A DNA stretch of 64,000 bases. Origin: Patescibacteria group bacterium. GTDB taxonomy: Bacteria; Patescibacteriota; Microgenomatia; UBA8517. Each line of letters starts with the position of its first letter. The first letter of the stretch is position 1. Location: the NCBI GenBank assembly GCA_022868165.1, contig JALHYA010000002.1, forward strand, positions 1,478-65,477, in the 5' to 3' direction. The translations under genes and the position numbers were made by a program. The notes under the pieces are model-generated. The model was not told where the DNA came from and searched no databases. It worked only from the letters and a program-made list of their open reading frames with translations. Positions 11,969-32,465 of this stretch are shown one piece after another.

Positions 11969-12757
11969 TCATCTCCCATTTCGATTTAATAACCCTATCG
12001 CCCGGTATAGAAAAATTGTCCCCCAGCATACTTTCCATTGTGTTGGTCTTAGCCACCAATGAGAATATAACTTCTGCACTTCAAAAGCCTGCCTAGCTTC
12101 TGCCTTATGCTCTCGTTCGCTCAGCGAGCCACTGTGTGCTCTCCAGTTTGCTAGATATTTATTAACGAAATAAGGCTTACTAACCTTGCCGGCTCTTAGC
12201 CAGTATTCATAATCCATGACAAATCTTAGGTCAGGATTAAACCCTCCTATCTGCTTATAAAATTCCCTCCGCATAAATACCGTAGGTTGTACTATAAAGT
12301 CTACGCATTGCAAAACTGTATAACTGTACCGTGGTTGCAGAAACTCTTTAGACTTAGTAATGAAACCTCTGACCTCTCTACCTGTGCTATCTATTATCTC
12401 ACCTTTACCATATAGCCATTGTACCTTATGATGTCTCTTAAAACATTTAACTACATTCTCAAAACACTCGGTTCTGTACGTATCATCTGCACATATGTAA
12501 GCAACTATATCCCCAGTAGCTAATTGCATTCCTTTGTTAATAGCATCTGATTGCCCCATTGGTGAAGTATGTGCCCAAGTGAACTTACTGTTATACTTCT
12601 TATTATACTCCTCAAGTATTCTCTGTGTACCATCTTGAGAATTACTATCTACCACAATGACTTCAAAGTTTCGATAACTCTGGGAAAATATAGATTCTAG
12701 GGTATGCCTTAGAAACTTTACACTGTTCAGTGAAGGTATAACAATACTAATTTTCAT
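11969..12757 (-). CDS. Family 2 glycosyltransferase
   Basis: MKISIVIPSLNS...VIVVDSNSQDGT GT2 N-terminus. Start taken at internal M, giving an ATGA overlap with the upstream methyltransferase stop. Confidence 0.8.
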   Translation of the reverse strand: MKISIVIPSLNSVKFLRHTLESIFSQSYRNFEVIVVDSNSQDGTQRILEEYNKKYNSKFTWAHTSPMGQSDAINKGMQLATGDIVAYICADDTYRTECFENVVKCFKRHHKVQWLYGKGEIIDSTGREVRGFITKSKEFLQPRYSYTVLQCVDFIVQPTVFMRREFYKQIGGFNPDLRFVMDYEYWLRAGKVSKPYFVNKYLANWRAHSGSLSEREHKAEARQAFEVQKLYSHWWLRPTQWKVCWGTIFLYRAIGLLNRNGR

Positions 12758-13344
12758 ATCTTTAGCTCCATAACTTCCTGCCGACATCTATTTGCCGAAA
12801 TCTCGCAATACTTTTCCTCTATCTCAATTCCTATACATCGGCGATTTAACTTCTTGGCACAATAGGCTGTTGTACCTGAACCGAGAAAGGGGTCAAGGAT
12901 TAGGTCGTTAGGATTTGAATAATCGGCAATCAACTTCAATATAAGTTTCTGTGGTTTTTGTGAAGCGTGCCCCGTGTAAATGTCCCCCGTGTAACTAGCC
13001 GCCACTGTTGAATTTATAAGATAGGCTCGATACATTTTATAGATGCACTGTCCGTTCCGTTCAAATATCCTTTCATATTGCGATGCTGCCCCAACTTTCT
13101 TATCCCAAATATGAATTGCTGTGCAGTCGAGGGGAAAGTCAGCTTTTGCACTCCAAAATACCAGTTGTCTACAATTAAATTCTGCCAATTCGTTTATAGC
13201 TTCCGAATCTCCATATTCAGAGTGGTAATCGCTGTATGGCGGGTCAGTCAATACCAAGTCCACCTTAACGTCAAGTTGTGGCAGAATCTCACGGCAATCA
13301 CCATGATAGATTGTTACCCACTTGTCTTGATAATAAGGATTCAT
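12754..13344 (-). CDS. DNA methyltransferase, beta-class (motif IV DPPY precedes motif I DPFLGSGTT). N6-adenine or N4-cytosine.
   Basis: Motifs DPPYS and FLGSGTT. N-terminus nearly identical to the methyltransferase at 59847-60488. Confidence 0.8.
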   Translation of the reverse strand: MNPYYQDKWVTIYHGDCREILPQLDVKVDLVLTDPPYSDYHSEYGDSEAINELAEFNCRQLVFWSAKADFPLDCTAIHIWDKKVGAASQYERIFERNGQCIYKMYRAYLINSTVAASYTGDIYTGHASQKPQKLILKLIADYSNPNDLILDPFLGSGTTAYCAKKLNRRCIGIEIEEKYCEISANRCRQEVMELKI

Positions 13345-13460
13345 ATCTTCTTCCCTTTAGGAAAACACTTTTTCAGTAGTGGACATTTTTTGCCTATGCA
13401 GCATTCTCCCTGCCCTGACATTATGCACATTATTATACTCTCCGGCTTTACTTTTTTCAT
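13341..13460 (-). CDS. 39-aa Cys-rich leader ORF (MKKVKPESIIMCIMSGQGECCIGKKCPLLKKCF...) translationally coupled to the DNA methyltransferase
   Basis: GGGGGT SD 9 nt upstream. TGA stop overlaps the methyltransferase ATG. Confidence 0.45.
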   Translation of the reverse strand: MKKVKPESIIMCIMSGQGECCIGKKCPLLKKCFPKGKKI

Positions 13461-13483
13461 TTTCTTGATACCCCCTTTTTTAT

Positions 13484-14374
13484 TCATAGTTTCAAATTAA
13501 CCAGCCATTCTTTAATCTCATCTATGGGCAAAAGCTCACTATCCAAGTCGTCAGTAATAACATTTTCCGTAGGCAGAAAAAGTTTTTCGTGCATCCTTTC
13601 ATCTTTTCTTAATCCCACAGTTTCCACTTTCGTCATATTATTGCCGTAAACCTCTATCATCGCTTTTGCTAAATCGCCGAGCTTAATAAGTCTATGATGA
13701 TGTGGGATATATATTTTGCCATTCTCGCCTTGTTCAAGGATTTGTATAATGAAACTTGCTACCACATTGACATCGACAAAAAGCCGTGTCATCTCAGGGT
13801 TGGTTACCATCACTTTATTGTTCTGCTTTATTTGTTGCGCCCATTTCAATATTACACTGCCAGTCGAACCAAAAAAGTTACCGCTCCTAATTATCATATA
13901 CCTGCAACTTGAAACTATTTGTGCCTGTCCGAGAATTGCCCTCTCAAGAAGAAGTTTAGTAGCACCATAACATCCTATGGCTTCAACGGCCTTGTCACTT
14001 GACATCCCTATAAAGGTGGCACCCTTAAAATATTTTAGTAAGTCTAATGTAGCAGTAACATTTGTAGCAATAGCCTCCAGAGGATATTGCTCACAATAAT
14101 CAATGTGCTTCATGGCAGCCAAATGCACCACCGCATCGACCTCGTTTAACGCATACTTTAAGGTGTCAATATTCCGTATGTCGCCGATGATAGGATTCAC
14201 TCGTTTATCACCACCGCACAACAACATCAACATTGCCAATTCATTTTCTTGGCGGGAAATCACCTTGATTTTAATGTGACTGAACCTACCAAGTAATTCT
14301 TTTACCAAGTGCCTGCCTAAGAACCCAGCGCCACCCGTTATTAAACAGTCGCCAAATTCCCACTTAGCCATCAA
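13484..14374 (-). CDS. NAD-dependent sugar epimerase/dehydratase (CapD/UDP-GlcNAc 4,6-dehydratase-like SDR)
   Basis: ITGGAGFLGRHL Rossmann motif. Polysaccharide-biosynthesis SDR architecture. Confidence 0.8.
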   Translation of the reverse strand: MMAKWEFGDCLITGGAGFLGRHLVKELLGRFSHIKIKVISRQENELAMLMLLCGGDKRVNPIIGDIRNIDTLKYALNEVDAVVHLAAMKHIDYCEQYPLEAIATNVTATLDLLKYFKGATFIGMSSDKAVEAIGCYGATKLLLERAILGQAQIVSSCRYMIIRSGNFFGSTGSVILKWAQQIKQNNKVMVTNPEMTRLFVDVNVVASFIIQILEQGENGKIYIPHHHRLIKLGDLAKAMIEVYGNNMTKVETVGLRKDERMHEKLFLPTENVITDDLDSELLPIDEIKEWLVNLKL

Positions 14375-15044
14375 TTTTTAACCTCCAGTATATCGTTTTC
14401 CAGGCTAGTATTATTCCCTGTTTGACAGGGTTTAGGACGCTGTTCCTTCGCCTGTCTTTGTGGTATACACAGGATACCGGCACTTCTATTATTCTCGCAC
14501 CCGCTTTCCTAGCTTTCATAAGCATCTCCGTCGAAAAACCAAAGCCGTCTTCTGTAATTTCGATGTTCTGTACGACCTCTTTTTTGAAAGCCCTGAAACA
14601 ACATAGGCTATCGGAAACCTTTTGTTTTGAGCCGATGTTGTAGAGCCATGTGATTACATCTATTCCGAATTTACGGTATCTAGGCATGGAGTCATCTATA
14701 ATATTAAGAAACCTTGAGCCTATGGCCATATCAGCATGGCTGTTTTCCATCTGTTCCAGTAACCACGAAATGCCTTCAGGAATATGTTGCCCGTCGCCAT
14801 CCAGCGTAACAACAATATCGTAGTCGTGGCTAACTGCATTCAGTCCTAGCCTAGTGGCTGCACCTGCACCCTGTATAGGTTGTTTAAATATCAAAGCACC
14901 AGCTTCTTTCGCTATCCGTGCGGTTTCATCTATAGAGTTATTGTCCACTACTACCACAGTGTCTACATACTTTTTGGTAGACTCGACTATATCACCTATG
15001 GTGCTTGCTACATTGTATGCCGGTATAACTGCTGCTATTTCCAT
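14364..15044 (-). CDS. GT2 glycosyltransferase, dolichyl/polyprenyl-phosphate sugar synthase-like
   Basis: AVIPAYNVASTIGDIVES..VVVVDNNSIDET..DGDGQH. Confidence 0.8.
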   Translation of the reverse strand: MEIAAVIPAYNVASTIGDIVESTKKYVDTVVVVDNNSIDETARIAKEAGALIFKQPIQGAGAATRLGLNAVSHDYDIVVTLDGDGQHIPEGISWLLEQMENSHADMAIGSRFLNIIDDSMPRYRKFGIDVITWLYNIGSKQKVSDSLCCFRAFKKEVVQNIEITEDGFGFSTEMLMKARKAGARIIEVPVSCVYHKDRRRNSVLNPVKQGIILAWKTIYWRLKIDG

Positions 15045-15062: not shown

Positions 15063-15758
15063 CTATTTCAATGGAACCAGTTCTAATAAAGCTATGCTCT
15101 CTTCGCCACTTTTATTATCGACCAAAGCGGCTGTTTCTTCAGGCACAGCTTCCCAATATCCTTCATGGTTACGGACATAATAAATCTCCTCCTTGATTTT
15201 CCAGTTAAGAAATAATTGGCTTAGCCAGAATTTATCATAAACCTTATGCAGCGAGCCAACAATTCTCCGTCGGCCATAGGGTACAGTGACTAAAAAGGTG
15301 CCATTAGGACGGAGGATTCTCTTTATCTGAGCCACGGCTTTAATATCACCATCAGGATCGTCCGATGTAATGCCCCATCTGCCGCCCAAACCTATGTGCT
15401 CTAATGTAGAAAGAGCACAAACAACATCAAAGAAATTATCAGGACAGTGGGTATTCGTAATGTCTTCTAAAACGAAGTGAAAGTTTGGAAACCTGAGTTT
15501 GAATTCTCTGACATCTATACCGTATACTTCCCACCCTATCGAAGCCAAACTAGCTGGAAGGAAGTTTTGCCGGGCACTACAACCGACATCAAGTACCCTG
15601 CCCTTTTTCATTGAGTTCAACTTCCCAATTACAAAGGAATACTCAAAGATGCGAGCGTCAGGAGAAGCAGTTTCGCCCGATGCCTCTAAATCAACAAGGC
15701 GATAAGCGAACCTTACTAAGCTTGGTGATAATTTGAACTTAGGAAATAGTTTAATCAT
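15063..15758 (-). CDS. Class I SAM-dependent methyltransferase
   Basis: VLDVGCSARQN motif I. Confidence 0.7.
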   Translation of the reverse strand: MIKLFPKFKLSPSLVRFAYRLVDLEASGETASPDARIFEYSFVIGKLNSMKKGRVLDVGCSARQNFLPASLASIGWEVYGIDVREFKLRFPNFHFVLEDITNTHCPDNFFDVVCALSTLEHIGLGGRWGITSDDPDGDIKAVAQIKRILRPNGTFLVTVPYGRRRIVGSLHKVYDKFWLSQLFLNWKIKEEIYYVRNHEGYWEAVPEETAALVDNKSGEESIALLELVPLK

Positions 15759-15777: not shown

Positions 15778-16875
15778 TTAATTATTTCTAAAGTAGCTTC
15801 TAATGCAATCGCAAACTCTTTCTATATCCTCATTGGTGAGAAAAGATGAAGATGGCAACCATAACCCCCGCTGCGAAATAGATTCTGAATTCCTGAAGTC
15901 TCCCTTGATATAGGAATAAGGCGGCTGGGTATGGATTGCCGGATAAAATGGCCGAACGCCTATGTCTTTTTCATCCAAGAATTTAGCTAAGTTATTTCTT
16001 GTTTCAGCCTCGTTGGCTAGAATGTCAATAAACCAAGGAACACAATCTTCTAGGTTGGTATCTATGAATTCTATTCGCTCGATGTTTTGTAACCGGTCAT
16101 AGTAAAGCGTATATATTTCTTTTTTCTTCTTCACCCGCCAATCGAGTTTTTTCATCTGCTCAAATCCAATTACTGCCTGAAGGTCGGTAAATTTGGCATT
16201 AAGCCCCATCGTTTCATGGTAATCTAGCCCCGCCTTAGGTCTGCCGAAGTCTTTTATCTTAGACACTCTACTGAATAGTTCCTCATCATCAGTAACTAAG
16301 GCACCGCCTTGACCGGTAGTAATGATTTTAGGAACGCTGAAAGAGAAACTTCCAAATCTCCCAAAGGTGCCCAGATGCTTACCTTTGTACCTTGACCCCA
16401 AAGATTGAGCCGCATCCTCAATCAAACATAGATTGTATTTGTTGGCTAGTGCTACAACTTTTTCCATATCAGGACAACGACCATTGATACTGACAAACAT
16501 TATAGCTCTGGTTTTAGACGTAATCGCTTCTATTGCCAATTCCAAGTCAAGGCATAGGTTCAAAGGGTCTATATCTACTAGGATAGGCTTGGCTCCGGCA
16601 ATAACAACAGCATTGGCTGAGGCTATCATAGTGTAGTCGGGAACAATGACCTCATCTTCCTTCCCAACGTCTAAGGCCATAAGGGCAATGACTAGGCTTA
16701 TCGTGCCGTTGCTGACCACCGAGGCGTACCTGCTGCCAACGTAATTGGCAATCGATTGTTCAAACTCTCTTGTTTTCTTGTGTTCGGTGAGCCACCCGCC
16801 ACTGTCAAGATATTCAGCCATCGCCTCTTTTTCCTCTTTGCCTATCCAGGGTTCTATTTGATTGATTCTCTTCAT
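15778..16875 (-). CDS. DegT/DnrJ/EryC1/StrS-family PLP-dependent sugar aminotransferase
   Basis: 365 aa with the family's characteristic length and conserved blocks. Confidence 0.8.
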   Translation of the reverse strand: MKRINQIEPWIGKEEKEAMAEYLDSGGWLTEHKKTREFEQSIANYVGSRYASVVSNGTISLVIALMALDVGKEDEVIVPDYTMIASANAVVIAGAKPILVDIDPLNLCLDLELAIEAITSKTRAIMFVSINGRCPDMEKVVALANKYNLCLIEDAAQSLGSRYKGKHLGTFGRFGSFSFSVPKIITTGQGGALVTDDEELFSRVSKIKDFGRPKAGLDYHETMGLNAKFTDLQAVIGFEQMKKLDWRVKKKKEIYTLYYDRLQNIERIEFIDTNLEDCVPWFIDILANEAETRNNLAKFLDEKDIGVRPFYPAIHTQPPYSYIKGDFRNSESISQRGLWLPSSSFLTNEDIERVCDCIRSYFRNN

Positions 16876-17399
16876 ATTTCCCCTTCAAAGTCTTTTTTTG
16901 ATAAAATTGGTGGCACTGTAACCCAGTTTATGCCAAACTTTGGGTCGTCATACCTAAAAGTCTTTTCCCTATTTGGGTCATAATACTCTGACATCATATA
17001 ATGGAATATGGCCACATCGCTTAATACCTGATAACTATTGCCATGCTTCGGTGGCACCAAAACTTGGTTGTGATTATCGCCTGACAATATAAAACCTTCC
17101 CACTTTCCACTTTTAGGCTCTACTACTACTTGATATACCTTGCCATAGAGACAGGTACATAACTTCCACCGCTTTGAATCCCAATGTATGCCACGAAGAA
17201 CACCTCTGGCACTGGTAGTGACAACTATTTCTTTCCACCTAACATTAATAAAGGTTTCATCTCGCAATAACACAGCAGAACTTAATCTTTTATGGTATTC
17301 AGCGTTATCCCAAATACCTATTACATTACCCCTATAATCTTCAAATGATTCAAGTTTTATCAGGTAAACACTATTTAGGGTTGTTTCTAACACTTTCAT
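16872..17399 (-). CDS. Cupin-fold sugar 3,4-ketoisomerase / 3,5-epimerase-like (FdtA/RmlC-like)
   Basis: FEDYRG motif. Adjacent to the aminotransferase, as in Fdt-type pathways. Confidence 0.55.
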   Translation of the reverse strand: MKVLETTLNSVYLIKLESFEDYRGNVIGIWDNAEYHKRLSSAVLLRDETFINVRWKEIVVTTSARGVLRGIHWDSKRWKLCTCLYGKVYQVVVEPKSGKWEGFILSGDNHNQVLVPPKHGNSYQVLSDVAIFHYMMSEYYDPNREKTFRYDDPKFGINWVTVPPILSKKDFEGEI

Positions 17400-17406: not shown

Positions 17407-17820
17407 TCAGATTCTTTCTCTGTCTCTCTCGGCTCCGGGATACGGGCCGTTCTTCACTTCCAATACTTTTGTGTTATCCTCCAATATCTCGTACCCATGC
17501 CCACCATTGAGAAGTATTATAGTGTCTCCCTTCCTCAAATTAACCGACTTCAAGAATTCCTTTTTCTCTGTGTAGATATCAGCCCTGACTTGCCCATCTT
17601 TTATGAAAATAACCTCCTGGGTGCGTAGCACTTGGCGAGGTTGAATTGAATGGATATGGGGAGCTAATTTTTGCCCTTTAGAATACTCCCATGTACCTAC
17701 TTGTTGATAATCCTCTTTAGAAGATACAAAACTTAGAATATTCCCACCCCCTTTCCAATCGGCATCCCTGATTATAATTGCTAAAGTTAAATCTCCATCC
17801 GTTATTTCTTCTGTTTTCAT
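17407..17820 (-). CDS. Cupin-domain protein (WxcM/sugar isomerase-like)
   Basis: 137 aa small beta-barrel protein in sugar-modification context. Confidence 0.45.
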   Translation of the reverse strand: MKTEEITDGDLTLAIIIRDADWKGGGNILSFVSSKEDYQQVGTWEYSKGQKLAPHIHSIQPRQVLRTQEVIFIKDGQVRADIYTEKKEFLKSVNLRKGDTIILLNGGHGYEILEDNTKVLEVKNGPYPGAERDRERI

Positions 17821-17839: not shown

Positions 17840-19834
17840 TTATCTAGGTTTTAAGTTAGCAGCACGCATATCGGCATCTACCATCATTTTTACCAATTCT
17901 TTGAATTTCACTTTGGGTTTCCAGCCTATTAACTTCTCTGCTTTTCCAATATCAGCCTGTAATACATCAACCTCAGTAGGTCTATAATACCTTTCGTCTA
18001 TCTCGACGTATTTCTGCCAAGATAAACCTGCAATACCAAAAGCTTCCTCAACAAATTCTTTTACTGTGTGTGTTTCTCCAGTGCCTATAACTATATCTTC
18101 CGGATACGGTAATTGCATTATCTCCCAGATTGCCTCCATATATTCTTTTGCGTAGCCCCAATCACGCCTAGCCTCTAGGTTGCCTAGCAACAGCTTATCC
18201 TGTTTGCCTGATAATATATTAGCTATGCTCTTGGTAATCTTACGAGTAACAAAAGTCTCGCCTCTGCGTGGACTATTATGAACTTTGATCAGATTAGCAC
18301 CAGTGGCAAAGGATTGCGATTCTGTCTGAATGTCATAAAACCAGTTATCCTCTGCTGCAGTATCTACAATATCGACAATCTCGTCTTTATCTCTTGTCAG
18401 GTGCCTTCCTTTATTGGTAGGTTTATCTGTAGTAAACTGTGCATAATAGTAACGTCTTCCAGCACGATAATCACACTTAACTTTAGCTTCCTGGTTTGGC
18501 GATATAGCAAACATGAGATATACCAAACCTAAACACAGTGTCGCAGACTTCGTTGTGAATCCTTTATATTTATAAGTTTCATTGCCTTTTTGCCTACCAT
18601 CTGCCATATAATAACCCTCGTAGAAAACTTTCTTGGCGATATTGTCACTGTTTAATACAAAAATTGGAATTCTCTTTTCGCTGCTTCGTTCTGTATATAT
18701 ATGGCTTCTTAACCAATGACCAAACGCACTATCATTATTTATATCTAAATCCCAGATATCATTTCGGCATCCATCATATTCGCCAACACCTTTATTTGTT
18801 AATCTATAGCTCCATCCATATCGCTTGATAACAGGCAAGGCAATCGTCAGCAATTCCTCTTTGTCAATACCAATTAATCGTATTCCTCCATCAAGTGCTA
18901 TATGCCCATCGCCTACTATATAACCTATGAATCGCAAAAGAGAAATGTCATCATTAAATAATGATTGATTGTTCTCGGGGTATTCTATTTTGAAAAGCTT
19001 ATTACCAATACCTAGATTAACTGTCATTACTTCCGCCCCATCATCCTTGAATACTGCGTGTTCAAAGGTAGCTTCATAACATGCTTTTCTAGATTGAATA
19101 AGTCTTACTCTCTTTTTGGCATCTTTATAACATGAACCGCTTAGAACACGTGTCCATTCTTTCCCATTCCATACATGCGAGTTAGCATATTCATCTTTCA
19201 GTCCTTCATATTTATGTTTCTCAGTTCTAAACATATCCTCAATTGGAATTATATCTATTAATCCATTGTCCTTTTTGACAATCAATGGGCTATTCTTCAA
19301 TATGCTCTCATGGTTAAATAGAATCCCGTTCACGGCAAAGATACCATAACTGTTCCTATAATGTATGGTTTCAAAATAACTGTGTAATTTTGCGATTGCA
19401 TAAGGACTGCCGGGCAACATAGGAGTATCTTCATTTTGCGGTGGTGGAGAATTGCCAAATTGTTCCGAGCTGGCAGCATTATAAAATTTAGTGTCTGGCT
19501 TAACTTGCCTAACAGCTTCTAGCAATCTAGTAGTTCCAAGAGCCGTAACATTTTCCGTATATTCAGGAATTTCAAAACTCACTTTTACGTGGCTCATTGA
19601 AGCAAGGTTGTAAATTTCATCAGGCTGTATCTTATGTATTAAACTGAATAGACTTCCGCTATCTGTCATATCTCCAAAGTGTAGTTGCAGTTCATCAAAT
19701 ATATGGTCTATACGTTGCGTGTTGAATGATGAGCTGCGCCGAATTATTCCATGGACTTCATAGTTCTTAGATAATAGTAATTCTGCTAAGTAAGAACCAT
19801 CTTGCCCAGTAACGCCGGTGATTAGGGCTTTCAT
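17840..19834 (-). CDS. gmd: GDP-mannose 4,6-dehydratase interrupted by a 344-aa intein
   Basis: N-extein ends ..AVNGILFNHE and C-extein resumes SPRRGETFVTRKIT, so the canonical Gmd LFNHESPRRGETF is split. Confidence 0.85.
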   Translation of the reverse strand: MKALITGVTGQDGSYLAELLLSKNYEVHGIIRRSSSFNTQRIDHIFDELQLHFGDMTDSGSLFSLIHKIQPDEIYNLASMSHVKVSFEIPEYTENVTALGTTRLLEAVRQVKPDTKFYNAASSEQFGNSPPPQNEDTPMLPGSPYAIAKLHSYFETIHYRNSYGIFAVNGILFNHESILKNSPLIVKKDNGLIDIIPIEDMFRTEKHKYEGLKDEYANSHVWNGKEWTRVLSGSCYKDAKKRVRLIQSRKACYEATFEHAVFKDDGAEVMTVNLGIGNKLFKIEYPENNQSLFNDDISLLRFIGYIVGDGHIALDGGIRLIGIDKEELLTIALPVIKRYGWSYRLTNKGVGEYDGCRNDIWDLDINNDSAFGHWLRSHIYTERSSEKRIPIFVLNSDNIAKKVFYEGYYMADGRQKGNETYKYKGFTTKSATLCLGLVYLMFAISPNQEAKVKCDYRAGRRYYYAQFTTDKPTNKGRHLTRDKDEIVDIVDTAAEDNWFYDIQTESQSFATGANLIKVHNSPRRGETFVTRKITKSIANILSGKQDKLLLGNLEARRDWGYAKEYMEAIWEIMQLPYPEDIVIGTGETHTVKEFVEEAFGIAGLSWQKYVEIDERYYRPTEVDVLQADIGKAEKLIGWKPKVKFKELVKMMVDADMRAANLKPR
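18275..19306 (-). other. Intein with LAGLIDADG homing-endonuclease domain
   Basis: First residue Ser, block B TEKH, LAGLIDADG-like LLRFIGYIVGDGHI and FYEGYYMADG, terminal VHN followed by +1 Ser. Confidence 0.75.
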
Positions 19835-20613: not shown

Positions 20614-21169
20614 CTATCATTTCCTCAAGTTCTTGTCTGATGTCTTTCCCGCTTATGCTATTGCCAATACAATCCCAACCGTCTACTTTTTGGCGGGCAA
20701 ATAGTTCTATACGGGTAAGATCGCCAAATAATTTCACGATTTCATTTCTAAATTCACTAGGCTTTTTGGAGTGGTGAGCTCTTGGATAGAATTGGACATT
20801 TCTAACAGAAGCATCTAACCTCTTACAACCATTCCCTTTAGTTGCCAAAAGACATATTTCAGCGTTTGCCCTAGTATATCTCCCCATACCCATAAGCGGG
20901 TTGTTGCCGAGAGTAGTTTTAACCCAAGTGAAAGCTACCGTCTTATACTTAAAACCCCAAGCGTTTACGACTTTCAACCCCTCCTCTAGTTGCGGGTATG
21001 TAACCCATAGAAGCAACACGGAATTATCATCTGCGGGAATAACTAAATTGCAAATATCTTCAGTTGCCATCGTTGGATAATGGCTTTCAGCCCCACCGCC
21101 ATGACTTTTACTTTTATCGTTATAATGCCACGGCGGGTCAGCATAGATTATCTGGTATTTCTTATTCAT
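20606..21169 (-). CDS. MT-A70-family N6-adenine methyltransferase (DPPW motif IIYADPPWHY)
   Basis: DPPW catalytic motif. 187 aa. Confidence 0.75.
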   Translation of the reverse strand: MNKKYQIIYADPPWHYNDKSKSHGGGAESHYPTMATEDICNLVIPADDNSVLLLWVTYPQLEEGLKVVNAWGFKYKTVAFTWVKTTLGNNPLMGMGRYTRANAEICLLATKGNGCKRLDASVRNVQFYPRAHHSKKPSEFRNEIVKLFGDLTRIELFARQKVDGWDCIGNSISGKDIRQELEEMIDA

Positions 21170-26064: not shown

Positions 26065-27536
26065 TTTATATTCTTCAGTTTAGCACGTATATATTTGTAA
26101 TAGAATTTAGGAAAAAACATAAACTTTAGCAGTGAAAAGTCTCCTTTGGCAAGGCGTTGCAAACCTTGCACAATAGCAACTTTGGAATGTGACCCTGCAA
26201 AGGTGGCAATCAGCGAAACTTTCCTGTCTACTATAAAACTTTGCATAGTGGCTGGAAGTAATTTATCAATATATAATGGTATGTTAGACAATTGGTTCAA
26301 CTTGGCATTTAACTTGTATTCAACTCGGTCATACCACGAAAAGTCGTGTGGCAATGTACCTTGTTTGCGAGCAATTGCTTCTAGTTCTGTTCCGGGAAAA
26401 ATCATAGTTGGCTGAATAGGGCAAATAAAGCCATAGGTTCTCTCAATCCGATCAATCAGATTCGATGTTTCTATGAGGTCTTGCTCATCTTCCCCTGGGA
26501 AAGAGAACATAAAATAAGGTTGAACAATTATATCAATATCATGGCACTCCTTACAAAAGCTAAGAATCTGGCTAACTGAAATGCCTTTTCCTATTCGTGA
26601 AAGAATTCTTGGCGAACCAGATTCTACGCCTATTGCGATTGAAACACAGCCGGCCTTTTTCATAAGTTCTAATAGTTCCAGTGGTATATTGACCCTACTT
26701 TCACACCACCACTTCAATTTTAGATTCCTACCTATTAGTTCTTGGCACATCGCCCTGACATGATGAGGATTAGCTGTGAAAGTTAAATCAAGGAAGTTAA
26801 TGCCTTCTATATTGAATTTGTCCCTGTAAGACTCTATCTCATTGACAACATCTTTTGCCTTTCGTGTTCGGTATTTCATTCCAGCCTTTGAACAGAATAT
26901 ACATTTGTATGGGCAACCACGAGACGACATAACACTGATTGCACGAATAGGCTCTAGATACCCAAAGATATGTTCCGGGTATTCATCCCAACTAAATTTT
27001 GTATAGGGCTGTAAACTATCCAAATCATCAAAAATGGGTTGGTCTGGATTGTTAGTGATGCGATTATCCTCTCTATATGTAATGCCCTTTACCTGCCTCA
27101 AATCTTTCCCTTCATCTACATTATTTATTATCTCTACAATAGTTATTTCCCCTTCTCCCCGAACGACAATATCAACTTCCGGCACCCTTCGTAACGTATC
27201 TTCGGCACAATGCATGAAATGCACTCCTCCAACAACCACCAGTGACTTGGGATAAAGCTTCTTTACATATTCTGCTACCTTGACAGCCTCAAAGCGTGTG
27301 TGCGTTACTGAGGTAATTCCAAAGATGCGTGACTCATTATTCTTGAGCACTTCTTTTATGGGCTTGCCCTGATATCTTCTCTGTTCTAAGTCAATGATTT
27401 CCACCTTGTGCACAGTCCTACTTTCAATAGATGAGGCCAAATAAAAAAGGGAAAGGGGACGTGTTAGTTGCCAATATTGTTCCGTAGCAGCACCTGCAGA
27501 GACCGATTTTGCAGGTTGAATCAATGTTATTTTCAT
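26061..27536 (-). CDS. B12-binding (class B) radical SAM enzyme
   Basis: CPYKCIFC motif. Paralogue of the preceding gene, with an ATGA overlap. Confidence 0.75.
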   Translation of the reverse strand: MKITLIQPAKSVSAGAATEQYWQLTRPLSLFYLASSIESRTVHKVEIIDLEQRRYQGKPIKEVLKNNESRIFGITSVTHTRFEAVKVAEYVKKLYPKSLVVVGGVHFMHCAEDTLRRVPEVDIVVRGEGEITIVEIINNVDEGKDLRQVKGITYREDNRITNNPDQPIFDDLDSLQPYTKFSWDEYPEHIFGYLEPIRAISVMSSRGCPYKCIFCSKAGMKYRTRKAKDVVNEIESYRDKFNIEGINFLDLTFTANPHHVRAMCQELIGRNLKLKWWCESRVNIPLELLELMKKAGCVSIAIGVESGSPRILSRIGKGISVSQILSFCKECHDIDIIVQPYFMFSFPGEDEQDLIETSNLIDRIERTYGFICPIQPTMIFPGTELEAIARKQGTLPHDFSWYDRVEYKLNAKLNQLSNIPLYIDKLLPATMQSFIVDRKVSLIATFAGSHSKVAIVQGLQRLAKGDFSLLKFMFFPKFYYKYIRAKLKNIK

Positions 27537-27541: not shown

Positions 27542-28468
27542 TTATATTTTGCTAGCCTCTCTCATTCCGGCCCAGAGCCCTCTCAAACTACCACTATCCT
27601 TCCTTACTATGCTCATCACCGCCTCCATCAGGAATAAACCAACTACTGACCAGTAAAAGGCAAGGTTATGCTTTAGGTCTTGGGGTAAATTCTTCTTAAA
27701 ATAACAGAGATGATTTATCATCAGCCCTTTTCTTCTATCATACAGACTTCTTTCAGCCGAAGAGTAATTATGAATTCCTTTGGCATAAGGAACGTAAACA
27801 TTCCTGTATTTTCTGGATAGCCTATAGGCAAACTCATCGTCTTCGGCATATCTGTATTTGTAGAGGTTTTCGTTGAATCTAAATTCGTCAAGTATTTCTT
27901 TTCTAAAAGCCATGCAATAGCCAAAGAGGAATTCGCAAAAGGTGATTTCATCAACAGCACCGCTCTTTATGAATGTCGGAAACCCTGATAGCTGGAATTT
28001 ACCATCACCCCACCGGGGCAAGAAAAAAATACTGAGTAAGAATTGGGATACGGTAGCATCTCTTATCTTATCAGAAAAATGAAGACTACTCTCTACTTGA
28101 TGCCGCTCTGCAATATTGGCAGTTACTCCACCAATATCTCTGGGATAAGTGTTGAAAACATACATAATCTCTTTCAGGCAATTTTTTTCTAATACGACAT
28201 CATCATCAATAAAGACGATTATATCTCCGGAACTGGCACTGATGCCGACATTCCTTTGAAGCGTTAAGCCAGGTTTACTATGAACATATTTTATTCTCTC
28301 GTTTCCAGTGAAGCAAAGTTTAATTTCCGAATTTAGCTTCTTTGTATCACTGCCATCAACAATGAGAATTTCATCAGGTGGAACTGCTTGGGTCAGAAGT
28401 GACTCAAGACATCTGACTACATCTTGAATTCTGTCTTTGGTTGGGATTATCACTGAGATTTTATCCAT
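27542..28468 (-). CDS. Family 2 glycosyltransferase
   Basis: ISVIIPTKDRIQDV...VDGSD. Confidence 0.75.
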   Translation of the reverse strand: MDKISVIIPTKDRIQDVVRCLESLLTQAVPPDEILIVDGSDTKKLNSEIKLCFTGNERIKYVHSKPGLTLQRNVGISASSGDIIVFIDDDVVLEKNCLKEIMYVFNTYPRDIGGVTANIAERHQVESSLHFSDKIRDATVSQFLLSIFFLPRWGDGKFQLSGFPTFIKSGAVDEITFCEFLFGYCMAFRKEILDEFRFNENLYKYRYAEDDEFAYRLSRKYRNVYVPYAKGIHNYSSAERSLYDRRKGLMINHLCYFKKNLPQDLKHNLAFYWSVVGLFLMEAVMSIVRKDSGSLRGLWAGMREASKI

Positions 28469-29409
28469 GCTAAACCCTCATTCAAAAACCAACTTGTATA
28501 CTTTCTTAGCCCATCCTCAATATTCGTCTTCGGGACATAACCAAGGTCTCTCCTTGCCTTATCAATGTTTGCCCATGTATGCTCAGCATCACCTTTCTGT
28601 GATAGTGTATGAATTATCCGTGACTTGCTGTTTGTTATGTTTACTATTTTTTGAGCCAACTCGTTTATAGTGACACGATTGCCACTGCCAATATTGTAAG
28701 TTTGACCATCACCCTTGTCTCCCGCCAATAAGGAGGCTTCAACAACATCGTCAACATAAGTAAAGTCTCTCGTCTTCTCCCCGGTGCCAAAGATTTCGAT
28801 TTTTTCGTTATTTAATGCTTTTCGGGTAAATATGGATATAGCCAAGTCAGGACGCATTCTAGCCCCATAGACCGTGAAAAACCTTAGTGAGGTAGTTCTT
28901 AATCCATAAACTTCGGTGAAAACTCGGCAATATTGCTCAGCGGCTAATTTAGACACCCCATAAGGTGAAACCGGCATCTTAGGGTGATCCTCATCAAACG
29001 GCAAGTATTCAACCTTGCCATACACTGAAGAAGAAGATGCGTTTATTAGCTTTTTAACATTTGATTTCAAGCAGGCTTGTAGAATATTCAGCGTACCAGT
29101 AGTGTTAATTTCATGGGGCTTTCTCGGATTATTTACAGAAATCCTAACGCCAGGCTGAGCAGCACAATGAAAAACGTATTCTATGTCCGGCCTTATTACA
29201 TTCTGAACCAACTTTTCATCGCAAATGCTACCCTCAATAAGTTTGAAGTTTTTATTTAGCAAGAATTGCTCAATGTTTTTGTGCTTCAATTTTGGGTCAT
29301 AGTATGAGTCAAAGTTGTCTAGACAGATAACTTCATAGTCCTTATCTAAAAGTTTTTGGCAAAGATGGCTTCCGATAAAGCCTGCACCACCAGTTATTAG
29401 GATTTTCAT
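28450..29409 (-). CDS. NAD-dependent nucleotide-sugar epimerase (SDR; UDP-glucuronate/GlcNAc 4-epimerase-like)
   Basis: ITGGAGFIGSHL and YxxxK SDR motifs. Confidence 0.8.
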   Translation of the reverse strand: MKILITGGAGFIGSHLCQKLLDKDYEVICLDNFDSYYDPKLKHKNIEQFLLNKNFKLIEGSICDEKLVQNVIRPDIEYVFHCAAQPGVRISVNNPRKPHEINTTGTLNILQACLKSNVKKLINASSSSVYGKVEYLPFDEDHPKMPVSPYGVSKLAAEQYCRVFTEVYGLRTTSLRFFTVYGARMRPDLAISIFTRKALNNEKIEIFGTGEKTRDFTYVDDVVEASLLAGDKGDGQTYNIGSGNRVTINELAQKIVNITNSKSRIIHTLSQKGDAEHTWANIDKARRDLGYVPKTNIEDGLRKYTSWFLNEGLAWIKSQ

Positions 29410-29417: not shown

Positions 29418-30302
29418 CTATTCTCTCACTCCATATTTTTCTGCCATGAACTTATTTATATCTTTGACTTTAGATAATAGTGTATTCTTAAAAAATAGCT
29501 CTTTTTCTATGAATTTATTGTATGCTTCCATATCTTTCGGAATGCATCTTCCTCCGGCTGCCATCCCATTGATAGTGCCATAAAACCCAATACGCTTATC
29601 CATCGCAGTAATTTTGCCTACTAAGCGTGAATCTATCTCTAGTTTCTGGCATACTAAGAACATCTCATTCCAATATGAAATCTTCGTAGCCAGCATCAGA
29701 TTGGCAGCATACTTACACATCTCAGCTGTTTTCAAGTCAGTACGAAATATCGGTATGTGCAAAGGCAAATAAATATCGGATAACACATCGCCTGATTTCT
29801 TATCCAATTCCCCAATAACTATTCGCTCTGTGTTCCGCATTCCTCTGTGATAATTAAAATCCTGAGTCCATGACTTCGCTATTTCCGTCAAGAACTCAGG
29901 ATTCATGCACAAGCCAAACTCTTTTCCGCTTGACTGTAAAATCGGCAAAACCACTTTCTCTGTGGTCAAGGGTATAACCGTGCTTTTAATCACCACTAGA
30001 TGCCAATGTTTTGAATTTCTTAATCCTTCTGTTATCTTTTTCACTGCATCAACCACATATGTCAAGTTTATTCCGTTATCCGATGGCGTGGGTACGCAAA
30101 CAAAGCTTACATCCGTTTTAGACACGGTTTGGGCAACATCATCACTCACACTTTTACCTTGCCTAGATAACTCCGAAATTGTATTCGGGTTTATATCGCA
30201 ATATATTACTTTATGCCCCAATTTCTCAAGGCATTCACCTGTTTCTCCACCTACCTTGCCACTGCCAATGATGCTAATGCTATTCACTACCTGCCTCTTC
30301 AT
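29418..30302 (-). CDS. UDP-glucose/GDP-mannose dehydrogenase-family protein (short form)
   Basis: N-terminal GSGKVG Rossmann. Catalytic-Cys motif GGRCIPKD. Confidence 0.65.
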   Translation of the reverse strand: MKRQVVNSISIIGSGKVGGETGECLEKLGHKVIYCDINPNTISELSRQGKSVSDDVAQTVSKTDVSFVCVPTPSDNGINLTYVVDAVKKITEGLRNSKHWHLVVIKSTVIPLTTEKVVLPILQSSGKEFGLCMNPEFLTEIAKSWTQDFNYHRGMRNTERIVIGELDKKSGDVLSDIYLPLHIPIFRTDLKTAEMCKYAANLMLATKISYWNEMFLVCQKLEIDSRLVGKITAMDKRIGFYGTINGMAAGGRCIPKDMEAYNKFIEKELFFKNTLLSKVKDINKFMAEKYGVRE

Positions 30303-30688
30303 AATTTTAGTTTGTCTAACCTGTTTTTTATATTATCGAACCCATCGCTCATCTGCCTTTTAATCTCTTCTAAATCTTTTTGGACTAGATTATCATGTTT
30401 GTAAAATTGTTCATTCCATGAACTTAAATAACTCGGCAATAAAAATTTCCATGCCAAAATATAAGTGATTATCAAAACACTAATAATGACAGACATAAAT
30501 ATCCAAAATCGAATGTATATGCCATACCCCATAAGCCAAGTTGATATCTCAACATACGCATTAACCGATGTCTCCAGCAATATTAAAAGTGATACCACCA
30601 TCCCCACTTGTGTAACCGTCAAGAAGAACATACCCAACCGTTTGCTAATATTCTGTTGCCCAAAAATATTGAGAATAGTTTTCTTCAT
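30299..30688 (-). CDS. Small membrane protein
   Basis: ORF track 129 aa, 2-3 TM. Confidence 0.5.
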   Translation of the reverse strand: MKKTILNIFGQQNISKRLGMFFLTVTQVGMVVSLLILLETSVNAYVEISTWLMGYGIYIRFWIFMSVIISVLIITYILAWKFLLPSYLSSWNEQFYKHDNLVQKDLEEIKRQMSDGFDNIKNRLDKLKL

Positions 30689-30819
30689 TTCATACCCGTT
30701 TCATAAAAAGTTCGGGCACAGTTTTTACACTGGTATCGTTGCTTCTTCCCTTTTCGGGTAACAACTATGCCAGCTTTTTTGGTTTTAGCGGATTTGCATT
30801 CAGGACATACCATAATCAT
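30685..30819 (-). CDS. Stand-alone transposase-type zinc-ribbon protein (44 aa; CPECKS..QRYQCKNCARTF)
   Basis: Hand-translated. TGA overlaps the ATG of the downstream gene. No clear SD. Confidence 0.35.
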   Translation of the reverse strand: MIMVCPECKSAKTKKAGIVVTRKGKKQRYQCKNCARTFYETGMK

Positions 30820-30845
30820 GTTGCCTATATTATATGTATATCTGT

Positions 30846-32465
30846 CTATCTAGTCAAATCGGTGCTTAGCACTTCAAATACTTTTACCTTGCCATCAGTT
30901 GATTCCCATACTGGCTTGCCAAAGTAGAACAGCTTATACACAGCAGTGTCCTCCGGCTTCACATTGTTGACGTAAAATATTGGATAGGCATTGGTGGTGA
31001 ACATTTCCTTGTCAAGTATGATGTATCTCCATTTGTTGGCTACTATGTCTAAAGTAATATCTGATTTACAGAGTATATCATTGCCACACCCATTGCCCGG
31101 CGTGTAACTTGCCGGCATGTGCCCTGCTTGCACAATCCAATAGCCATAGTTCCAATGGCTAAGAACTCCATAATTAAGCCTATCCGATTTCTGTGTCTCA
31201 TATATAACTGGGTCAAAAAGCATACCACCGAAATAGCAACCGGGGCTTATCTCCACTCCTCCAGTAAAATATAATCCCTCTTTTACATCGGTGGGAACAT
31301 TAGCTGGTTGCGTTCTAAGCCAAGTACAACATTCTTGCCAAGCCTTGGGCATTGTACCGAGACCCGATGTGGCTATCACCGTACTTCTATAACCAAATAG
31401 CAAGCAGAGCATTAAGGTTAGTGCGACAATAATCCTTGTCATCTTGACTTTATCGGTTCTGAATAGTTTAACGATATAGACTGATATAAAGGCACTCATT
31501 ATGGCAATGTTGATAGCAGAGTAATAAGCAAAACGTCTTGCAGAGAAAGTTAGAGCTAACATAATTACAGACCATACCAGAAATAACAACGTTTCCTTGT
31601 TCTTAGATTTGATGTACTGATGTAGTAAAACTCCAATCCCAAACAAGGTAAGAAAGAAGGCAATGCTGAAGTATCCAATTACAGTCACGAAATCGAATTG
31701 CCCGGCAGTAAAGAATAGGGGCATCATTTCACCTACTGTAGTTGTGATATTGGGTATGAATATACTAAGATTTTTAAATATATTAGGTACAAATAAATAT
31801 ACTGCCCCATAGACAATGGCGATTACTACCCATGCCTGCCATTTTTTACAGAATAGGGCAATCAAAAATATGGCGAGGATGAACAGGAATAGAGGTGCTC
31901 CGTACCACGATAAGAGATACAGCCCTGTAAATACAAGACCAAATAAACTATATACAATTCTTTGCTTGCCATCTTTTACTGCAAGTATGCCAAACATCAT
32001 TATCGTAGTGAGCAACAGTATCTCAAGACAATGATAATCGGCAGCCCCAAGCATGGTACGGCTCAGTATCTCTCCGGGCATCAAGGCCAATAAGAATACG
32101 CTAAGTGCTGCAATTAGTTTTTCCTTGAATAAAGCCCTAGCTATGACATAAACAGGAATCAGGGTCAGGAGAAATAGAATTGGCGGTATCCACGCCCCGG
32201 CTGTTGTTGTGTCAGTGTGAAATAATTTAGCGGTCAGAGCTATCATGGCAGGAAATACCATCTGCGACATTGGTTCTGTACCTACAGGATAGTTAAAGAA
32301 ATAATCGTGTGCTGGTATATTAGGCCAAATATCGGCATAGCGTACCATGTAGTAGGCATCTACTGTGTTTAACTGTATGCCGTTATGAAGCGGTAGGATT
32401 ATGTGAAATAGAAGAAAAAATATAGCACTAAATCCAAGTAGCAGGGAAATGAGCCACTTGTTCAT
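30846..32465 (-). CDS. STT3/AglB/PglB-family oligosaccharyltransferase (short form)
   Basis: About 13 N-terminal TM helices. WWDYG-like motif SHWNYGYWIV in the C-terminal soluble domain. Confidence 0.6.
   Translation of the reverse strand: MNKWLISLLLGFSAIFFLLFHIILPLHNGIQLNTVDAYYMVRYADIWPNIPAHDYFFNYPVGTEPMSQMVFPAMIALTAKLFHTDTTTAGAWIPPILFLLTLIPVYVIARALFKEKLIAALSVFLLALMPGEILSRTMLGAADYHCLEILLLTTIMMFGILAVKDGKQRIVYSLFGLVFTGLYLLSWYGAPLFLFILAIFLIALFCKKWQAWVVIAIVYGAVYLFVPNIFKNLSIFIPNITTTVGEMMPLFFTAGQFDFVTVIGYFSIAFFLTLFGIGVLLHQYIKSKNKETLLFLVWSVIMLALTFSARRFAYYSAINIAIMSAFISVYIVKLFRTDKVKMTRIIVALTLMLCLLFGYRSTVIATSGLGTMPKAWQECCTWLRTQPANVPTDVKEGLYFTGGVEISPGCYFGGMLFDPVIYETQKSDRLNYGVLSHWNYGYWIVQAGHMPASYTPGNGCGNDILCKSDITLDIVANKWRYIILDKEMFTTNAYPIFYVNNVKPEDTAVYKLFYFGKPVWESTDGKVKVFEVLSTDLTR

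Follow-up and report, generated by a model that had tools for sequence, protein, structure and literature searches.

A compact AglB/STT3-family oligosaccharyltransferase at the head of a glycan-biosynthesis island in an uncatalogued family of bacterial mobile elements

We analysed a stretch of 64,000 nucleotides (nt), referred to here as the window, from contig JALHYA010000002.1 of assembly GCA_022868165.1, which is labelled as a Patescibacteria group bacterium. Positions 11969-32465 of the window form one co-directional block of 22 minus-strand genes for the activation, modification and transfer of sugars, and the first gene to be transcribed in this glycan island encodes a 539-amino-acid (aa) oligosaccharyltransferase (OST) of the AglB/STT3 family. 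Both the OST and a predicted lipid-sugar synthase of the island belong to the core gene set of a rare, uncatalogued family of bacterial mobile elements, in which the glycan cassettes that go with these two genes are interchangeable. The finding holds up, and it amounts to more than a simple cargo island.

Gene content of the glycan island

Each class of gene that a first-pass annotation, made from the sequence alone, had placed in the island was found again, at the coordinates it had given and on the minus strand, by Pfam and NCBIfam searches, and the gene content supports the coherent glycan pathway that it had proposed for this 20-kb block. In order of transcription, from 32465 to 11969, the island holds the following genes.

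30846-32465, minus strand: AglB/STT3-family OST, short AglB-S-like form, 539 aa (Pfam, PDB profile, AlphaFold model)
30299-30688, minus strand: 129-aa protein with two transmembrane (TM) helices and a coiled-coil tail, without a Pfam match
29418-30302, minus strand: nucleotide-sugar 6-dehydrogenase, N-terminal and central domains only (Pfam UDPG_MGDP_dh_N and central domain; TIGR03026)
28450-29409, minus strand: short-chain dehydrogenase/reductase (SDR) nucleotide-sugar epimerase/dehydratase (Pfam Epimerase, 222 bits; partial GalE, RmlB and TviC-like matches)
27542-28468, minus strand: family 2 glycosyltransferase (GT2) (Pfam Glycos_transf_2; partial NCBIfam matches)
26061-27536 and 24694-26064, minus strand: two class B (B12-binding) radical S-adenosylmethionine (SAM) enzymes, 491 and 456 aa (Pfam B12-binding and Radical_SAM)
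23293-24657 and 22696-23283, minus strand: DUF2206 polytopic membrane protein in two open reading frames (ORFs), 454 and 195 aa (Pfam DUF2206)
21172-22706, minus strand: two class-I SAM methyltransferases, at 21172 and 21903 (Pfam Methyltransf_11/25/23); overlapping ORFs, the second of uncertain start
20606-21169, minus strand: MT-A70 DNA adenine methyltransferase (Pfam MT-A70, 90 bits)
19834-20613, minus strand: class-I SAM methyltransferase (Pfam Methyltransf_24, 70 bits)
17840-19834, minus strand: Gmd (GDP-mannose 4,6-dehydratase) with an intein, 664-aa ORF (TIGR01472 gmd)
17407-17820, minus strand: WbuC-like cupin, 137 aa (TIGR04366, 28.6 bits, below the cut-off of 42)
16872-17399, minus strand: RmlC-like 3,5-epimerase, 175 aa (Pfam dTDP_sugar_isom, 118.6 bits)
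15778-16875, minus strand: DegT/LegC/PseC-type sugar aminotransferase (Pfam DegT, 342.7 bits; NCBIfam)
15063-15758, minus strand: class-I SAM methyltransferase (Pfam Methyltransf_23/11)
14364-15044, minus strand: predicted polyprenyl-phosphate glycosyl synthase, a GT2 like AglJ, PpgS and Dol-P-hexose transferase (NCBIfam, below equivalog cut-offs)
13484-14374, minus strand: PseB/FnlA-like UDP-GlcNAc 4,6-dehydratase (Pfam Polysacc_synt_2, 206.5 bits; TIGR03589, 165.6 bits, below cut-off)
12754-13344, minus strand: compact N6/N4 DNA methyltransferase, 196 aa (Pfam N6_N4_Mtase), a paralog of 59847-60488
11969-12787, minus strand: GT2 glycosyltransferase, the last gene of the island (Pfam Glycos_transf_2, 96 bits)

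The predicted lipid-sugar synthase at 14364-15044 has its best matches in AglJ (143.8 bits, cut-off 325), PpgS (111.6 bits, cut-off 370) and Dol-P hexose transferase (86.4 bits, cut-off 375), all of them below cut-off. Its sequence is 45-49% identical to a GT2 encoded beside the STT3 gene in two related contigs (relatives are labelled L001, L002 and so on; these two are L001 and L003) and 35-39% identical to GT2s in four Dehalococcoidia aglB loci. The dehydrogenase at 29418-30302 scores 208 bits against TIGR03026, over profile positions 67-299 of 413. Both radical SAM ORFs carry PF02310 and PF04055 above cut-off; their NCBIfam matches (HpnJ, BchE, PhpK and the Mcr C-methyltransferase) all fall below cut-off, and no assignment can be made at the equivalog level. 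The closest relative of the window, L080, shares with it a sub-cassette of GT2, epimerase, B12-binding radical SAM enzyme and DUF2206, and there the radical SAM counterpart carries a fused GtrA_DPMS_TM domain, a hint at a lipid-linked sugar as the substrate of the enzyme.

The DUF2206 protein in its two ORFs went unmentioned in the first-pass annotation, to which an intein in Gmd, the two DNA methyltransferases inside the island and the domain loss of the dehydrogenase are further additions. The DUF2206 profile is divided between the ORFs, the first covering positions 114-197 and the second 215-331. We rejected a frameshifted pseudogene as the explanation, because the identical two-ORF split is kept in L016, an unrelated locus from a metagenome-assembled genome (MAG) (438 and 194 aa; 8014-9911). 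DUF2206 always lies near an STT3 gene, and in L080 (9034-12269) it follows the fusion of the radical SAM enzyme to GtrA_DPMS_TM. A search against PDB sequences with DUF2206 found nothing. The protein may be a second glycosyltransferase that works on the outer face of the membrane.

The Gmd ORF scores 450 bits against TIGR01472 (cut-off 415) in two stretches, and it reaches 664 aa because a 344-aa LAGLIDADG intein is inserted at residues 177-520 (nt 18275-19306). The junctions read NHE/SILKN...KVHN/SPRRGE, with Ser177 as nucleophile and a C-terminal His-Asn520 followed by Ser521. Two LAGLIDADG motifs lie at residues 299 and 401, so that the insertion reads by its motifs as a class 1 intein, with no match to an intein hidden Markov model (HMM) listed. 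The exteins rejoin as ...FNHE/SPRRGE... to give a Gmd of 320 aa. The DegT aminotransferase of L003 (18816-21104) also has an intein, and such insertions in sugar-nucleotide enzymes suggest that inteins home between relatives of these elements that co-infect a cell.

The 129-aa protein accompanies the OST in relatives, with homologs in L001, L002 and L003 and beside the STT3 cluster of L016. A GtrA identity was considered and rejected, as the protein has two TM helices, not four, and no Pfam match. Two further genes of the block belong to DNA modification. MT-A70 is a housekeeping gene of the element, not a glycan gene, and has a 51% identical homolog beside Gp37/68 in the replication module of relative L067. 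The 196-aa N6/N4 methylase is 38% identical over its full length to the right-flank methylase at 59847-60488; since it aligns end to end with that 213-aa paralog, we rejected the view that it is truncated.

The oligosaccharyltransferase and the conserved gene string

The 539-aa protein (NCBI MCJ7805197.1, locus tag MUP46_00955) is a genuine AglB/STT3-family OST as judged from Pfam, a PDB profile search and its modelled fold. It matches Pfam STT3 (PF02516) with 38.1 bits against a cut-off of 24.5 (E 1.7e-9), and a profile of 30 family members matches the AfAglB-L structure 3WAJ (E 1.9e-59), with the membrane part and the C-terminal part both covered. Profile positions 386-530 match the 162-164-aa AglB-S C-terminal domains 3VU0 and 3VGP (E 2e-20 and 1e-19), which by sequence makes it an OST of the short AglB-S type, with its C-terminal globular domain cut to the core unit. 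An AlphaFold (AF2) model (pLDDT 86, pTM 0.87) returned AglB 7E9S as the top Foldseek match (E 7e-20, TMq 0.75), ahead of yeast and human STT3, then of PglB and, lower down, of other GT-C enzymes. With the HMM score above cut-off, the AglB fold and the catalytic motifs in place, the STT3-family identity given to 30846-32465 in the first-pass annotation is upheld, and the possibility that the protein lacks an STT3 fold falls away.

Across the 30 family members D36, D143-x-H145, E148, E246 (in TVGE, the TIXE-type loop) and R310/R311 are invariant, and the acidic and metal-binding motifs align to NDPWYY, NDHHIWE and TIAE of AfAglB. The sequence SHWNYGYWIV places HWNYG, which is common to five other family members, at the position of WWDYG. 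The HWNYGYWIV motif that had been called WWDYG-like is present; that label hides the loss of the WWDYG Asp. Likewise, the DK motif reads D-K-E-M-F-T-T-N against D-x-x-M-x-x-x-K in AfAglB and in the WWDYG-bearing relatives, with Lys replaced by Asn. About half of the family keeps WWDYG together with DxxMxxxK, and the rest have HWNYG, QWSYG, TWDNG, WWTYG, HADYG or similar. In the solved OSTs (the PglB and AglB structures) the +2 Ser/Thr of the sequon is bound in a pocket made by the WWDYG and DK elements. With the WWDYG Asp and the DK Lys both replaced, the standard N-X-S/T specificity therefore cannot be assumed, and the sequences suggest a non-standard acceptor motif in the clade of the window OST. 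Since the catalytic residues are invariant and the pocket motifs variable, the catalytic machinery has been constrained while the acceptor pocket diversified. Against TIGR04154 (oligosaccharyl transferase, archaeosortase A system-associated) the OST scores 205.5 bits, below the cut-off of 450, with its best stretch at positions 310-596 of 831.

A string of conserved genes lies directly upstream of the OST (32829-36176, minus strand), with collinear homologs in L001, L002, L003, L055 and L057. Within the window it comprises the following genes, together with small ORFs.

35490-36176, minus strand: 228-aa TM protein
35045-35479, minus strand: 144-aa protein
34162-35070, minus strand: P-loop ATPase, 302 aa
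33894-34202, minus strand: 102-aa protein; its homologs in relatives have weak TrmB matches
32829-33311, minus strand: 160-aa protein

A gap of 3 nt separates the OST start from the gene before it, and between 35070 and 30846 every gene either overlaps its neighbour or is at most about 15 nt away from it. In relatives the collinear order runs from the C-terminus of a 1755-aa protein through a 153-aa protein, the 228-aa TM protein, the 144-aa protein, the 302-aa ATPase and the 102-aa and 160-aa proteins to the OST, and the string recurs on contigs of 13-91 kb from unrelated samples. The families are small: out of 5.8 billion, the ATPase has 42 clusters and the close OST family about 32. Judging by their identical sizes, at least eight of the longest contigs of the two families would be the same contigs. 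The ATPase lineage of L057-L059 has no OST directly after its 157-aa gene in the DNA examined.

Downstream of the OST the glycan cassette differs between relatives. In L001 and L003 the OST is followed by an acetyltransferase, two radical SAM-SPASM enzymes, WbqC, an epimerase, DegT (the intein-bearing copy in L003) and a GT1; in L055 it is followed by methyltransferases, a GT4 and an asparagine synthase. The homologs that distant relatives share with the window island, besides the OST and the 129-aa protein, are the AglJ/PpgS-like GT2 described above and, at about 30% identity, DegT and the SDR epimerase. The gene identities, the fold and catalytic residues of the OST, the operon structure and the conservation of the string are established observations.

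A neighbour-joining tree places the OSTs of the elements in one deep clade apart from cellular OSTs. Naming a host from this tree was set aside, as the element clade is separate from all cellular clades. Among 185,579 GTDB species representatives, 51 loci were recovered and none of them holds the element clade, the best reaching 36% identity over its best aligned segment. With 26-36% identity on the same measure, Dehalococcoidia and other Chloroflexota have the nearest cellular OSTs, and the next nearest are from Acidobacteria, Planctomycetes and Methanosarcinales.

The mobile element, its virus-like genes and its host

The GC content of the window is flat at about 0.40, and neither GC nor tetranucleotide composition breaks at the island borders. 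In sliding 4-kb tetranucleotide windows r is 0.78-0.89 for the island, 0.77-0.89 for the right flank and 0.73-0.81 for the left 12 kb. This analysis used a larger pseudocount than the first comparison, which had given r of about 0.6 for the left 12 kb; the low value was probably an effect of the pseudocount, and we claim no boundary there. Because there is no compositional break, methylase paralogs lie both inside and outside the island and synteny extends to distant relatives, island and flanks are parts of one element. Genes run on the plus strand over about 2.1-11.3 kb and, in an almost unbroken series, on the minus strand over 11.3-63.3 kb. No cellular housekeeping gene was recognised across the 64 kb in Pfam and PHROGs scans, and tRNA and Rfam scans of the window gave no match. 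The mobile or virus-like genes that had been reported on both sides of the island were found again, with HNH and IS6 on the left and the ATPase, Gp37/Gp68, YopX and a DNA methyltransferase on the right. The main features outside the island and the core string are as follows.

3964-4587 and 5420-6433, plus strand: putative protein-primed family-B DNA polymerase, split into 207 and 337 aa by the HNH gene
4584-5483, plus strand: HNH endonuclease gene, left flank (PHROGs)
9582-10637: IS6-type transposase, left flank
37555-53838, minus strand: genes for secreted or membrane-anchored proteins in one block (the translations show signal peptides, lipoboxes and TM anchors; Pfam DUF2341 and BNR), with members of 252 aa (53080), 919 aa with DUF2341 (49963), 679 aa (48134), small proteins with 2-4 TM helices, 1755 aa (42261), the conserved 153 aa (41527), a 569-aa BNR-like propeller (39633), and 170, 185 and 239 aa
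57195-57929: Gp37/Gp68 (DUF5131), right flank
58476-58844: YopX, right flank
59847-60488: DNA methyltransferase, right flank
62214-63281, minus strand: P-loop helicase/primase-like replication protein (3953 homologs, many of which carry fused N-terminal domains)

Immediately before the ATPase lies this 16-kb block, whose products are secreted, lipoprotein-like or TM-anchored, and homologs of the 1755-aa C-terminus and the 153-aa protein are found in relatives. The density of N-X-S/T in the block proteins is 0.4-2.4 per 100 aa, compared with 0.49 elsewhere, and in most of them it is 2-5 times higher. The block proteins are candidates both for acceptors of the glycan and for components of a particle. 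We set aside a tailed phage in which the 1755-aa protein would be the tape measure, on the reasoning that its neighbours are proteins with signal peptides and TM helices, not tail or head proteins. Four to five diverged repeats of 159/180 nt at 40304-41003 (within 39633-41342) encode BNR/Asp-box-like blades (SIAxDSxDNxHVVW), and the membrane-anchored 569-aa beta-propeller may be a glycan-binding or sialidase-like particle protein.

An AF2 model of the ATPase (pLDDT 90) finds its best folds in the packaging NTPase STIV2 B204 (E 3e-7, TMt 0.51-0.56), the Zot N-domain, inovirus Zot proteins, A32-like ATPases and the PH1 ATPase; its profile gave only noise against PDB sequences. The polymerase-like gene is a single ORF of 531-549 aa in L064 (5735-7384), L072 (18462-20093) and L075 (3845-5440). 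It has a weak match to the DNA polymerase family phrog_11768 (E 1.6e-5), the L075 copy scores 21.7 bits against DNA_pol_B_2 (cut-off 25.8), and its profile found nothing in PDB.

Several observations concern the replication genes and the left flank. Within the HNH gene, 4692-5146 encodes at least five tandem 54-nt (18-aa) repeats, RGRT..(D/H)P...A..A.K, an unusual repeat domain N-terminal to the HNH motif. In L063 (Ga0172375_10000172, 98,273 bp) the helicase-like gene is 75% identical to that of the window, and the 10 kb downstream of it hold one other homolog of a window gene, an HNH match (48% over 81 aa), so that elements which otherwise differ seem to swap replication modules. A third copy of the 5' end of the DNA methylase (MNPYYSDYWVTI plus a stop codon) lies at 61450-61494, just upstream of an ORF at 61206-61448, the others being at 13307-13351 and 60448-60492, and it looks like the remnant of a decayed third methylase gene. 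The IS6-type transposase is preceded by a 39-nt tandem repeat (9500-9574); the sequences nearest to it (77-79% identity) come from tiny contigs, and most of its named relatives, at about 54%, belong to Chloroflexi. Coding confidence is low at 6900-9500, where short or TTG-start ORFs lie on both strands among large intergenic gaps, and the region may be regulatory, an origin, or made up of decayed genes.

The evidence on the host points to a bacterium, despite the archaeal-type OST. Canonical sigma-70 promoters (TTGACA-17-TAnnnT) lie in intergenic regions, at sensible distances from GGAGG sites, upstream of 62214-63281, 63676-63906, 1390-1905, 53080-53838 and 8575, and several of the secreted proteins have lipobox signal peptides. 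These sigma-70 promoters indicate a bacterial host, as do the GGAGG sites for ribosome binding and the lipoboxes. Ahead of the helicase-like gene, the promoter (TTGACA-17-TAnnAT, about 63290-63330) is kept in the window, L062 and L063, and its surroundings are not conserved. At about 63290-63420 (the first ~700 nt of L062/L063) the promoter TTGACA-17-TATAAT, the palindrome GGGTATCCCC and the box AATTCTTTTTAATATA are conserved, and this conserved region may be an operator or an origin. The Patescibacteria label of the bin is weak evidence for the host. AglB-type OST genes (650-960 aa) occur in many MAGs (L004-L040) from Dehalococcoidia, other Chloroflexota, Acidobacteria, Planctomycetes and one "Clostridiales" bin, and four Dehalococcoidia loci have an AglJ-like GT2 near the OST. 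Dehalococcoidia/Chloroflexota have an S-layer-type envelope and are not known to have peptidoglycan. We name a Chloroflexota host tentatively, at somewhat less than even odds.

Taken together, we read the window as almost the whole of a 65.7-kb bacterial mobile element, most likely a non-tailed, membrane-associated virus, with a self-contained N-glycosylation system within its conserved late/structural gene string, and we give this reading a probability of about 0.6. For the viral nature of the element, considered separately, the balance leans in favour, and a mobile element of another, non-viral kind is rather unlikely; "virus-encoded" is a probable description of the glycosylation system. 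A larger picture can be proposed more speculatively, and we hold it doubtful as a whole: a hitherto unrecognised lineage of large (45-98 kb), non-tailed, membrane-containing phages, maybe infecting Dehalococcoidia/Chloroflexota, with N-glycosylation machinery as a core function and a deep viral clade of minimal AglB-type OSTs, whose diversified acceptor pockets would imply new specificities.

Several results weigh against our reading. The suggestion in the first-pass annotation that the whole window is one virus or provirus holds as far as a single element with its flanks is concerned, for the compositional, paralog and synteny reasons given above; its viral part is likely rather than established, as PHROGs and Pfam searches of the flank ORFs, at the sequence level, turned up nothing recognisable as a capsid, portal or terminase gene or as another hallmark of a virion, and neither the OST nor the ATPase has a relative in IMG/VR or in 50,697 GenBank phage records. 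The PHROGs and Pfam searches were run on GS-linked concatenates and came back almost empty, and their "Serglycin" matches are artefacts of the linker. A nucleotide search of the structural half of the window against GenBank phages gave no match. The fold matches of the ATPase are modest (TMq 0.35-0.43), with KaiC and RecA scoring nearly as well. The excess of sequons is small and mostly compositional (49 observed, about 37 expected), and the replaced pocket residues leave N-X-S/T-directed activity of the OST not assured. The window yielded no flippase. The nucleotide-sugar dehydrogenase is without the C-terminal domain of full-length family members; since the same short form (292-294 aa) occurs in L016 (66-944, 50% identity), this truncation is conserved and not a sign of decay. 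The contig sits in a Patescibacteria bin. Finally, the ends of the contig lie outside the sequence analysed, which bears on completeness and termini: the window is without 1,751 bp of the 65,751-bp contig, and no informative terminal or inverted repeats were found within it.

The same absence of virion hallmark genes and of IMG/VR relatives would suit a plasmid or another kind of mobile element that is not a virus, such as a plasmid that is linear and protein-primed or one transferred by vesicles, whose cargo remodels the host surface and whose OST acts on host envelope proteins, not virion proteins. The proximity of the ATPase fold to KaiC and RecA, the IS6 transposase and the occurrence of aglB on haloarchaeal megaplasmids are also in keeping with it. 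We consider it unlikely, though the most serious of the rivals, since relaxase, partition and conjugation genes were not recognised in the PHROGs and Pfam scans of the flank ORFs, virion-morphogenesis ATPases head the fold matches of the ATPase, a long run of co-directional genes for secreted and membrane proteins stands directly before it, and genes typical of phages are present (HNH, YopX, Gp37/68, three or more DNA methylases, the intein and the split polymerase). More improbable is a change of acceptor rather than of element, in which the STT3-like protein would transfer the lipid-linked glycan to something other than Asn (a polysaccharide, a lipid or a hydroxyl side chain), as a gtrABC GT-C enzyme does. 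The HWNYG motif and the Lys-to-Asn change of the window clade, QWSYG, TWDNG and HADYG elsewhere in the family and the TIGR04154 score below cut-off would fit such a role, and the AglJ/PpgS-like synthase and the GtrA fusion of L080 recall three-component lipid-sugar systems. Set against this are the invariant metal and catalytic residues and TIXE-type loop, which position the acceptor carboxamide in solved OSTs, the canonical WWDYG and DxxMxxxK in about half of the family, and a fold that is nearest to AglB and not to other GT-C enzymes.

An archaeal virus or plasmid would account for an AglB-family OST whose best solved relative is archaeal, for the weak TrmB matches in relatives and for DUF2206, which Pfam describes only as a predicted membrane protein and which we take to be an archaeal family. 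Small hydrophobic proteins with two TM helices resemble spindle-virus capsid proteins, a likeness seen by reading translations only, and one archaeal spindle virus, NBC1, does encode an STT3. That virus shares the OST alone with the window, however; several sigma-70 promoters are well spaced from GGAGG, one of them being the promoter kept in L062 and L063, and the closest cellular OSTs and named IS6 relatives are bacterial (Dehalococcoidia, Chloroflexota), so that we think an archaeal origin very unlikely. Least credible of all is that the island is ordinary chromosome between two unrelated prophage or IS remnants, the scenario that the first-pass annotation had offered as its own refutation. 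The contig is binned with a cellular MAG, and the left 12 kb has an IS and slightly lower tetranucleotide similarity. That scenario was not seen: composition is unbroken across 11969 and 32465, at least eight other contigs carry the OST in collinear order with the ATPase and core genes, the island itself holds element-type methylases and an intein, no housekeeping gene turned up in the 64 kb, and the 51 GTDB loci are without this OST clade.

Proposed pathway and comparison with known systems

For the element as we read it, we infer the sugar structures, the lipid-linked assembly, the transfer on the outer face, the acceptors and the altered specificity; the steps up to the use of the lipid-linked glycan outside are drawn from the families to which its genes belong. 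Cytoplasmic enzymes would make unusual activated sugars by three routes: a GDP-mannose-derived 6-deoxy or amino sugar via Gmd, the RmlC-like enzyme, the cupin and DegT; a 4,6-dehydrated sugar derived from UDP-GlcNAc via the PseB-like enzyme; and a uronic acid via the dehydrogenase and epimerase. The SAM methyltransferases and the two B12-binding radical SAM enzymes would add methyl groups or other radical modifications. The AglJ/PpgS-like GT2 would then charge polyprenyl phosphate with a sugar and the further GT2s lengthen the glycan, which would be flipped while lipid-linked and used on the outer face of the membrane. There, to go by its fold and catalytic residues, the AglB-type OST may move the glycan to Asn of secreted proteins, and the DUF2206 membrane protein may add more sugars. 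Likely acceptors are the secreted and membrane-anchored proteins of the element, the host envelope, or both, and the particle or infected cell would gain a glycan coat specified by the element.

With an OST as core gene and a variable cassette behind it, the element, and not the host, would decide what is displayed on secreted proteins, with possible consequences for how receptors are recognised, for superinfection exclusion and for the stability of particles. From the family come about 30 single-subunit OSTs of very small size (500-560 aa), whose sequon pockets vary naturally and which could serve glyco-engineering. Current virus catalogues miss this element family entirely, and the AglB-type loci in MAGs assigned to Dehalococcoidia, other Chloroflexota, Acidobacteria and Planctomycetes raise the question of how such loci have spread. 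Our literature search found no report of a prokaryotic virus or phage that encodes an OST. To our knowledge, bacterial and archaeal viruses are thought to rely on host OSTs for N-glycans, and the phages that we know of carry glycosyltransferases or gtr modules, not an STT3-type enzyme.

The window OST shares with archaeal AglB (A. fulgidus AglB-S1/S2, 3VU0 and 3VGP; AglB-L, 3WAJ and 7E9S) the 13-TM GT-C fold, the Asp of external loop 1 (EL1), D-x-H and Glu, the TIXE-type loop and Arg-Arg, and with AglB-S the minimal C-terminal globular domain of about 150 aa. It differs from archaeal AglB in its low identity (about 19%), its separate deep clade, HWNYG, the Lys-to-Asn change in the DK motif, its score below the TIGR04154 cut-off and its place on a mobile element with bacterial promoters. 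The agl and pgl clusters (Haloferax aglB-aglJ, Campylobacter pgl) likewise combine an OST with a polyprenyl-phosphate sugar transferase, GT2s, DegT, 4,6-dehydratases and a nucleotide-sugar dehydrogenase, and Dehalococcoidia MAGs also pair aglB with an AglJ-like gene; in contrast to those clusters, the window set is on a mobile element, includes B12-binding radical SAM enzymes, DUF2206 and an intein, and has no recognised flippase.

Phage gtrABC serotype-conversion modules and the mycobacterial PpgS/Rv3789/Rv3779 system each combine a polyprenyl-phosphate-sugar synthase, a small membrane or GtrA component and a GT-C transferase that acts outside. The window shares this logic, in that its GT2 has PpgS and AglJ as its best matches, below their cut-offs, and a GtrA domain occurs in relative L080. 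Unlike those systems, its GT-C enzyme is an STT3-family OST that comes with a 20-kb sugar-biosynthesis set, and no GtrA was found in the window. Membrane-containing, non-tailed viruses with FtsK/HerA- or Zot-type ATPases (STIV, PRD1-like phages, inoviruses) supply the best structural matches to the core ATPase, and the possible protein-primed polymerase and the many small membrane proteins would be further likenesses. The similarity is confined to the P-loop core, no jelly-roll capsid protein was identified, and the elements, at 45-98 kb, are large; PRD1-like phages and inoviruses are much smaller.

Nitrosopumilaceae spindle-shaped virus NBC1 (Nipumfusiviridae) encodes an unannotated STT3/AglB homolog, ORF25 (597 aa; BK067786.1 9580-11373, our L060/L061), with a Pfam STT3 score of 98.6 bits, the motif AWWDYGYWIQ and an hhalign probability of 98.4% to the window OST family. 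The paper on this virus group gives no confident glycosyltransferase annotation for the reference genome NYMAG-47 (PMC10866085). NBC1 differs from the window element in being an archaeal virus of 38 kb with a canonical WWDYG and no sugar-biosynthesis island, and no gene common to NBC1 and the window was found beyond the OST. Chlorovirus PBCV-1, a eukaryotic virus, specifies its capsid glycan with its own enzymes, which are cytoplasmic glycosyltransferases, and we know of no STT3-type OST or lipid-linked en-bloc transfer in it. The likeness to our proposal lies in a virus whose own enzymes specify the glycan on its own structural proteins.

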